352 nt of DNA from Escherichia coli. GTDB lineage: Bacteria > Pseudomonadota > Gammaproteobacteria > Enterobacterales > Enterobacteriaceae. The position numbers and the translations under genes are program-made. The DNA lies in NCBI RefSeq assembly GCF_003334385.1, contig NZ_QOWN01000196.1; one strand, given 5' to 3'. Below, piece by piece: positions 1 to 352 of the stretch; within the stretch, counting starts at the first letter, position 1; each line of letters begins with the position of its first letter. The notes beneath the pieces are model-generated. The model was not told the origin of the DNA. It searched no databases and saw only the letters and a program-made list of their open reading frames with translations.

Positions 1-352
1 TTCGCCATTCCCGTATACAGAAAGGTATTCACCGTCTTCGTGTGAATGCCCATTTCACTGGCAAGGCGACAGGGTCTCGACTGGCGGTAGACGTAGCCAA
101 ACATCACCACCATCTCTGACATCGTCAGCGGACGGGCAACGCTGTTATACGTCCATACACCATTGCGTATGGCATCACTTATCTGCTCACCATCACGGAG
201 TGATTCCGCACCCAGTTGCAGAAAATGCCGTCCCTGGAACATGCAGCGCATCAGTCTGCCCAGCAACGTATCACAGATTATCAGCCAGGATTCGTCAAAG
301 TCCGGGATATAACGGCGGTTCTCCGGCAGGAAAAACTCCCTCGCCAGTATCA
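1..352 (-). CDS. Internal fragment of a protein-coding gene (hypothetical protein, possibly a DNA-binding regulator); 5' end lies beyond position 352 and 3' end beyond position 1
   Basis: Seen in sequence: the reverse-complement frame whose codons pair with + positions 350..3 is open for all 116 codons with no stop. The translation has a balanced, globular-like composition with a mixed hydrophobic and charged pattern. Leu is encoded mostly by CTG (8 of 12), as in enterobacterial genes. The other two minus-strand frames have stops near their starts. The antisense + frame is also open but encodes a Ser/Pro/His-rich low-complexity peptide. Function is not established; no database search was possible. 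Confidence 0.72.
9..131 (-). other. Putative helix-turn-helix-like DNA-binding segment within the CDS (residues 74-114 of the fragment: PLTMSEMVVMFGYVYRQSRPCRLASEMGIHTKTVNTFLYTG)
   Basis: Inference from residue pattern only: a hydrophobic helix-like stretch (SEMVVMFGYVY), a short basic turn (RQSRPCR), then LASEMGIHTKTVNTFLYTG with a hydrophobic-x-x-acidic-hydrophobic-Gly-hydrophobic ... T-x-T-V-x-x-x-L spacing. This resembles the second and third helices of sigma-70 region 4, LuxR-type, Mor/C-type or CaiF-type HTH motifs. Not verified by any profile search. Confidence 0.3.

Follow-up and report, generated by a model that had tools for sequence, protein, structure and literature searches.

ORF-156, a gene carried as cargo by lambdoid prophages of Escherichia coli, probably encodes a DNA-binding regulator of the LuxR type that is related to TosE, acts independently of phosphorylation and would be made in low amounts; we place the probability of this reading at roughly 0.7. 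The object itself is an already deposited, uncharacterised prophage gene, and the novelty lies in assigning it to the TosE-like regulators of the LuxR type. Entered in 2000 as ORF-156, it has been labelled 'hypothetical' ever since, and can now be described as related to TosE and as having a LuxR-type fold that is predicted with confidence. As annotation, the result is an ordinary case, useful but incremental. A regulator that travels with Eib-type adhesins is nonetheless a sensible target for expression studies.

The stretch of DNA analysed, termed the window, is the whole of a 352-bp draft contig (QOWN01000196.1), and its genomic context is taken here from complete genomes. Only one reading frame is open from end to end, on the minus strand from window position 350 to 3 (116 codons), and the codon counts given in the original prediction, which named no strand, all match this frame. 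The window is 100% identical to part of E. coli 2015C-3121 (locus L001, 20001–20352) and encodes residues 26–141 of the 157-aa WP_032217753.1 ('hypothetical protein'). It is, therefore, an internal fragment of an ORF-156 family gene (3..350, minus strand). That ORF-156 is a real gene is clear from selection on the protein (dN/dS 0.06–0.20 for the window's gene against four homologues), from a family whose members can be aligned from end to end, even where prophage copies have only about 50% identity, and from an AlphaFold2 model with a pLDDT of 91 and a pTM of 0.86. Assemblers probably left the gene as a tiny contig because it can occur in up to seven places in a complete genome. The same 352-bp contig recurs in several draft assemblies, L004 and L005 among them, and is probably a collapsed repeat derived from several prophages.

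Comparison with phage records by tblastn identifies the gene as ORF-156A/C/D/E of P-EibA, P-EibC, P-EibD and P-EibE, the prophages of E. coli ECOR-9. The protein is 92–94% identical to ORF-156A, C and D and 69% identical to ORF-156E, and the corresponding GenBank records (AF151091 and AF151674-6) state no function for ORF-156. In P-EibA and P-EibE, ORF-156 lies directly after eib, which encodes an immunoglobulin-binding adhesin, and a stem-loop; the window's gene is placed in the same way after its Eib-like adhesin gene. The window's copy differs from the P-Eib prophages in its insertion sites (yecE, prfC and btsS) and in its Eib-like adhesin, which has the stalk and anchor in common with EibA and a different head; otherwise there is nothing of substance to separate them. 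The family is very narrow, since a profile search of 1.84 billion proteins returned only 35 cluster representatives. The protein is matched by PHROG 6585, a family without known function, while the models of Pfam (even at E ≤ 10), NCBIfam and PADLOC gave no match for the window's protein, and a single-protein sequence search of the PDB gave no match. A second phage profile, PHROG 2014 (80 residues), matches residues 24–80 and may represent truncated remnants of the gene.

The functional assignment begins with P0050, a protein of 160 aa with 34% identity to the window's protein over 156 residues (E 2e-33 pairwise; E 3e-32 with the family profile). P0050 maps to the genome of E. coli Nissle 1917 and to about 190 others. 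In Nissle 1917 it is the gene directly after the adhesin gene of an operon that runs in the order PapB-family regulator, TolC-family protein, type I secretion ABC transporter, HlyD, repeat adhesin, helix-turn-helix (HTH) protein, HTH protein. This order matches the description of the tosRCBDAEF operon (PMC5956150), which identifies P0050 as TosE. TosE and TosF are members of the LuxR family and are reported to suppress motility (PMC5956150), and the mechanism of TosE is described in the literature as unknown. The gene after P0050, TosF, has a Pfam GerE domain. As judged by sequence, TosE is a full-length homologue of ORF-156 and its only named relative; the literature searched contains no paper that links the two.

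TosE and ORF-156 are alike in having T-x-N after strand 1, an Asp after strand 3 and a helix of the form KTV..T..Y..KKNG, and each is encoded by the first gene after that of a surface adhesin. Their settings differ: TosE is found in the pathogenicity island PAI-aspV of uropathogenic E. coli and Nissle 1917, behind an RTX adhesin exported by type I secretion, whereas ORF-156 is found in prophages behind a trimeric autotransporter. The next gene differs as well, TosE being followed by a second regulator, TosF, and ORF-156 by a 57-aa ORF with a hydrophobic tail. The gene for a third member, P0049, is preceded by one of the RTX type (HemolysinCabind). With ORF-156, TosE and P0049 each placed after such a gene, the family repeatedly trails genes for secreted, adhesin-type proteins. 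From the homology we infer a TosE-like regulatory role for ORF-156.

The neighbourhood of the gene can be divided into three parts: the adhesin gene upstream, the short interval before ORF-156, and the small ORF that follows. Eib-type adhesins contribute to the chain-like adherence of Shiga-toxin-producing strains that lack LEE, and the Eib papers in the literature searched do not discuss the downstream gene. An adhesin gene lies immediately upstream of ORF-156 in loci L001, L002, L003, L006, L007 and L015. Phage 2B8 has its homologue directly after the tail-fibre genes instead, and copies of the 2B8 type are also present in Stx1a phages. A full-length copy is found in 185 genomes, and 71 genomes have a contiguous junction between the adhesin gene and ORF-156. 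The linkage is thus frequent, not universal. A GC-rich hairpin followed by a run of T (L001 19862–19896) separates the stop codon of the adhesin gene from the ribosome-binding site of ORF-156; its folding energy is -30 kcal/mol and its z-score -2.6. All five loci that were aligned have this hairpin, although the upper stem and the loop vary somewhat, and its form suggests an intrinsic terminator that precedes the regulator gene. In the remaining 30 nt from the hairpin to the start codon, a consensus scan found no sigma-70-like promoter.

On the downstream side, the 57-aa ORF (L001 20406–20579) begins 4 nt beyond the stop codon of ORF-156 and is itself followed by a palindromic hairpin. It matches PHROG 9340, which has no known function, and it occupies the position held by the small ORF-60A after ORF-156 in P-EibA. 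It accompanies ORF-156 in every close annotated locus examined (L001, L002, L003, L006 and L007). With its hydrophobic C-terminal stretch, it may encode a small membrane protein.

The close association with adhesin genes raises the alternative that ORF-156 is a dedicated activator or repressor of the neighbouring eib-type adhesin gene, and not of host functions such as motility. P-EibA, P-EibE, three complete genomes and PhiR5_1, a deposited phage genome, all have the gene immediately downstream of the adhesin gene. In addition, an imperfect palindrome of 18 bp, TTATTTGTATACAGATAA, is found at three loci (L001 18529–18546, L002 3882–3899 and L007 3476–3493). Upstream of the Eib-like adhesin gene there is only one promoter-like site, and the palindrome falls within its spacer and -10 region, where it could serve as an operator for a dimeric regulator. 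A precedent exists in AutA and AutR, regulators of the LuxR/GerE type from avian pathogenic E. coli, which bind the promoter of the adjacent adhesin gene upaB and also affect host regulons. However, the palindrome is absent from the region upstream in P-EibE, and its conservation elsewhere may reflect nothing but near-identical DNA. Some full-length homologues, that of phage 2B8 for one, have no adhesin gene beside them, and the contiguous junction is the minority arrangement in the genome counts given above. Activation of eib is also reportedly attributed to the unlinked genes ibrAB. Together these points make a role confined to the adjacent adhesin gene unlikely, albeit the least unlikely of the alternatives considered here.

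The reading of ORF-156 as a TosE-like regulator draws its structural evidence from the AlphaFold2 model, which comprises two domains. When the whole model is compared with the PDB by Foldseek, the top 43 matches are all full-length regulators of the NarL/FixJ type. The window encodes part of the N-terminal domain, a degenerate, receiver-like alpha/beta domain (residues 26–97; 135..350, minus strand), which among regulators is nearest to that of DevR/DosR. It also encodes most of the C-terminal HTH domain of the LuxR/GerE type (residues 98–141; 3..134, minus strand), including the predicted recognition helix (residues 129–142; window 3–41, minus strand). In the predicted model, the four helices of this HTH domain can be superposed on NarL-C and GerE. 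The same two-domain architecture is predicted for ORF-156 as is found in NarL/FixJ regulators and in their phosphorylation-independent relatives DosR/DevR, RcsB, EvgA and VpsT. Unlike the NarL/FixJ family, however, the window's protein fails the sequence definition of both domains (Pfam GerE and Response_reg). No significant match to GerE (PF00196) is obtained for the window's protein, and one of the 29 family members reaches GerE at an E-value of 0.1. The family profile, when compared with the PDB, finds GerE (E 0.33) and VqmA (E 0.08), both short of significance, and hhalign of the family against TosF gives a weak match in the HTH with a probability of 33%.

These structural likenesses would also suit a canonical two-component response regulator of the NarL/FixJ type, in which Asp52 is phosphorylated by a kinase of the host or the phage. 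The model aligns as a whole with full-length regulators of this kind, and an Asp that is invariant in the family alignment stands at the end of strand 3 (codon at 270..272, minus strand), where D52 would be equivalent to the phospho-acceptor position of receiver domains. This Asp, however, is the one residue of the five-residue receiver signature that is present. T7-R8-N9 stands in place of the acidic pair after strand 1, and strand 4 is followed by G/D-A, without Thr or Ser. The domain is also shorter than a receiver by about 25 residues, the fifth strand/helix unit being absent together with its Lys. Response_reg matches neither the window's protein nor, even weakly, the other 28 members of the family, and no kinase gene was found in the cassette. 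We therefore consider control by phosphorylation of Asp52 very unlikely.

The genomic position of ORF-156 is that of prophage cargo. It occupies the right end of a complete lambdoid prophage in E. coli 2015C-3121. This element measures approximately 47.7 kb and extends from the integrase to a dinI-like gene. The right arm carries, in order, the portal, capsid and tail genes, J, the tail fibre gene, a DUF4376 gene, the YadA-type adhesin gene and ORF-156; beyond these are the 57-aa ORF, the dinI-like gene on the other strand, and chromosomal yecD and aspS. On the other arm are the integrase, excisionase and repressor-type genes, the antiterminator Q, the lysis genes and the terminase. The integrase gene overlaps yecE (a DUF72 gene), which is the insertion site. 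Both junctions have an exact core of 11 bp, TTAACTGCGTG, which the intact yecE shares with the displaced fragment of that gene; with the flanks included, the att match is imperfect (about 19 of 23 positions). A core as short as this is consistent with site-specific integration and is not strong evidence alone. The location of the gene, inside a prophage with the 11-bp core at its junctions, agrees with the original prediction. A search of the prophage ends at the yecE site found no tRNA gene.

The same cassette closes prophages that adjoin prfC and btsS in other strains, so that carrier prophages occupy three or more chromosomal sites (yecE, prfC and btsS), and a protein 100% identical to that of the window's gene is encoded in PhiR5_1. 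A sensitive DNA search found a match in 452 of 5426 complete E. coli genomes, the gene being absent from more than 90% of them, and copies with at least 80% coverage were found in 185 of the 5426. Far from being conserved and syntenic across the species, the locus is thus patchily distributed and moves with its prophages. The presence of the gene inside prophages at several sites, its patchy distribution and its occurrence in phage genomes bear out the original prediction of a horizontally acquired accessory gene; location, synteny and distribution all favour it. With a location bounded by attachment sequences and a patchy spread, ORF-156 is accessory cargo of lambdoid prophages, probably of the kind termed a 'moron'.

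Residence in a phage genome could also mean that ORF-156 serves the phage cycle, as an accessory to late genes or tail fibres or as a superinfection or defence factor, and is not a regulator acting in lysogenic conversion. The gene does close the late operon, with the tail-fibre genes upstream of it, and, since no promoter of its own was found, would be reached by Q-antiterminated late transcription. Against this, the predicted fold is that of a DNA-binding HTH protein and not of a fibre chaperone, no PADLOC model is matched, and TosE, the closest named relative, belongs to an adhesin operon that is not of phage origin. Nor is an intact gene retained throughout the phages: Stx2 phage PA28 has only a split remnant, as two short ORFs beside IS elements (L009 3971–4393), and about 150 further phage records, mostly of Stx-converting phages, show partial matches only. 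A function in the phage cycle is on this evidence highly improbable. The more specific notion that the protein is a phage antiterminator Q was rejected: Pfam lends it no support of any kind, and a Q gene is already annotated at another place in the prophage.

Codon usage was what first drew attention to the window. Its isoleucine codons are four ATA, two ATC and one ATT, and its arginine codons are two AGA, one AGG, one CGG, five CGC and three CGT; GGA is used twice and CTG accounts for nine of the 12 leucine codons. By the codon table, with residue positions converted to window coordinates, there are eleven rare codons within 12..350 on the minus strand: ATA at 348–350, 279–281, 180–182 and 168–170, AGG at 339–341, AGA at 255–257 and 75–77, GGA at 231–233 and 12–14, CGG at 228–230 and CCC at 72–74. 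The claimed enrichment of ATA (four of seven Ile codons) and of AGA/AGG (three of 12 Arg codons) is real in the sense that it exceeds chance when judged against the flanking core genes, with binomial probabilities of 4e-4 for at least four ATA in seven and 0.012 for at least three AGR in 12. The reference for core genes consists of 17 genes that flank the same locus in one complete genome. All of these codon tests are post hoc and the sample is small.

Across the full gene of 157 codons, ATA makes up four of eight Ile codons and AGA plus AGG four of 14 Arg codons, a set of eight rare codons contributes 7.6% and GC3 is 0.63. The corresponding values are 18 of 298, 15 of 361, 2.9% and 0.53 in the 17 flanking core genes, and 35 of 272, 39 of 363, 5.3% and 0.60 in 21 other genes of the same prophage. 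Fisher tests against the core genes give p-values of 0.001 for ATA, 0.003 for AGR and 0.003 for the eight rare codons; against the other genes of its own prophage the difference is marginal (0.015, 0.06 and 0.2 in the same order). The GC3 of the gene is above that of the core genes, so AT-richness does not account for the rare codons. The codon adaptation index (CAI) of the full gene is 0.255, calculated with weights after the table of Sharp and Li (1987) and compared with the 17 neighbouring core genes only. It is at the low end of their range (0.24–0.63), among core genes of weak expression such as yebB (0.241), with znuC (0.267) also close by, and CAI alone would not have set the gene apart from these. 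In base composition the gene itself is host-like at 52.4% GC, and only the surrounding DNA is mosaic, ranging from 37% to 65%.

Rare codons make up 7.6–14% in eight of eight family members examined, including some that are only 34–69% identical, and are therefore a trait of the family and not noise. The divergent members are very AT-rich, with 28% GC in tosE (L013 2195–2677), as against 52% in the ORF-156 gene, and 34% in the P0049 gene (L010 3211–3678). Prophage copies have 44–53% GC, and the high use of ATA and AGR is kept in the AT-rich members too. This pattern suggests an AT-rich ancestry followed by partial amelioration, with the ATA/AGR habit persisting. The idea that the codon pattern is a small-sample accident in an ordinary, weakly expressed chromosomal gene can appeal to the seven Ile and 12 Arg codons of the window, to the choice of codons after inspection, to the overlapping CAI and to the host-like GC, but it is scarcely credible given the recurrence in distant homologues and the binomial values, and as an account of origin it is already refuted by evidence independent of codons, namely several prophage sites and absence from most genomes. 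Rare ATA, AGA and AGG codons in 352 bp had rightly flagged prophage cargo, for which GC and CAI alone would have been insufficient.

How might a TosE-like regulator of this kind operate? The predicted protein would combine a receiver-like alpha/beta fold that lacks a phosphorylation pocket with an HTH of the LuxR/GerE type, and most likely binds DNA independently of phosphorylation. Because a terminator-like hairpin lies upstream and no promoter of its own was found, ORF-156 would be transcribed by read-through, either at a low level from the adhesin promoter in lysogens or on a Q-modified late transcript upon induction. Rare codons would further limit translation, resulting in a small dose of regulator that could adjust the expression of host or phage-cargo genes when the adhesin is expressed. 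By homology to TosE and by analogy with AutA and AutR, the target may be host motility, other surface-structure genes or the adhesin promoter; like TosE and TosF, ORF-156 could suppress motility. The literature searched holds no expression, DNA-binding or phenotype data on ORF-156. AutA and AutR resemble ORF-156 in being small LuxR-type regulators within a horizontally acquired adhesin cluster, a likeness that is one of analogy only, and no Aut protein was identified among the 35 ORF-156 profile hits.

A bolder proposal, which we regard as possible but doubtful, is that a TosE-type regulator delivered by a phage rewires the host when the phage adhesin is made, for example by shutting down flagellar genes or by acting via a host partner such as RcsB. 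If true, temperate phages would bring both an adhesin (Eib) and a matched switch to 'stick and stop swimming', and the rare codons and upstream terminator would serve to keep the dose of regulator low relative to that of the adhesin.

Several further observations concern these loci and their regulators. A supposed likeness of ORF-156 to the Psr regulators of O157 prophages, taken as LuxR-like, was discarded since a review shows Psr to be of the AraC/XylS type. About 6 kb downstream of P0049 is a gene with PAPS_reduct and DUF3440 domains (L010 9559–9678 and L011 9548–9667), a combination also seen in IbrA, which is reported to activate eib genes; this may be coincidence. Where the prophage ends, a short way upstream of the dinI-like gene, there are two CTGT-N8-ACAG motifs, which have the pattern of a LexA box (L001 20878–20925) and suggest that this gene is under SOS control. 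In the early region, the same prophage carries a gene for a transcriptional regulator of the PerC family (L014 15468–15962), and with this gene and ORF-156 the prophage brings more than one potential host-directed regulator.
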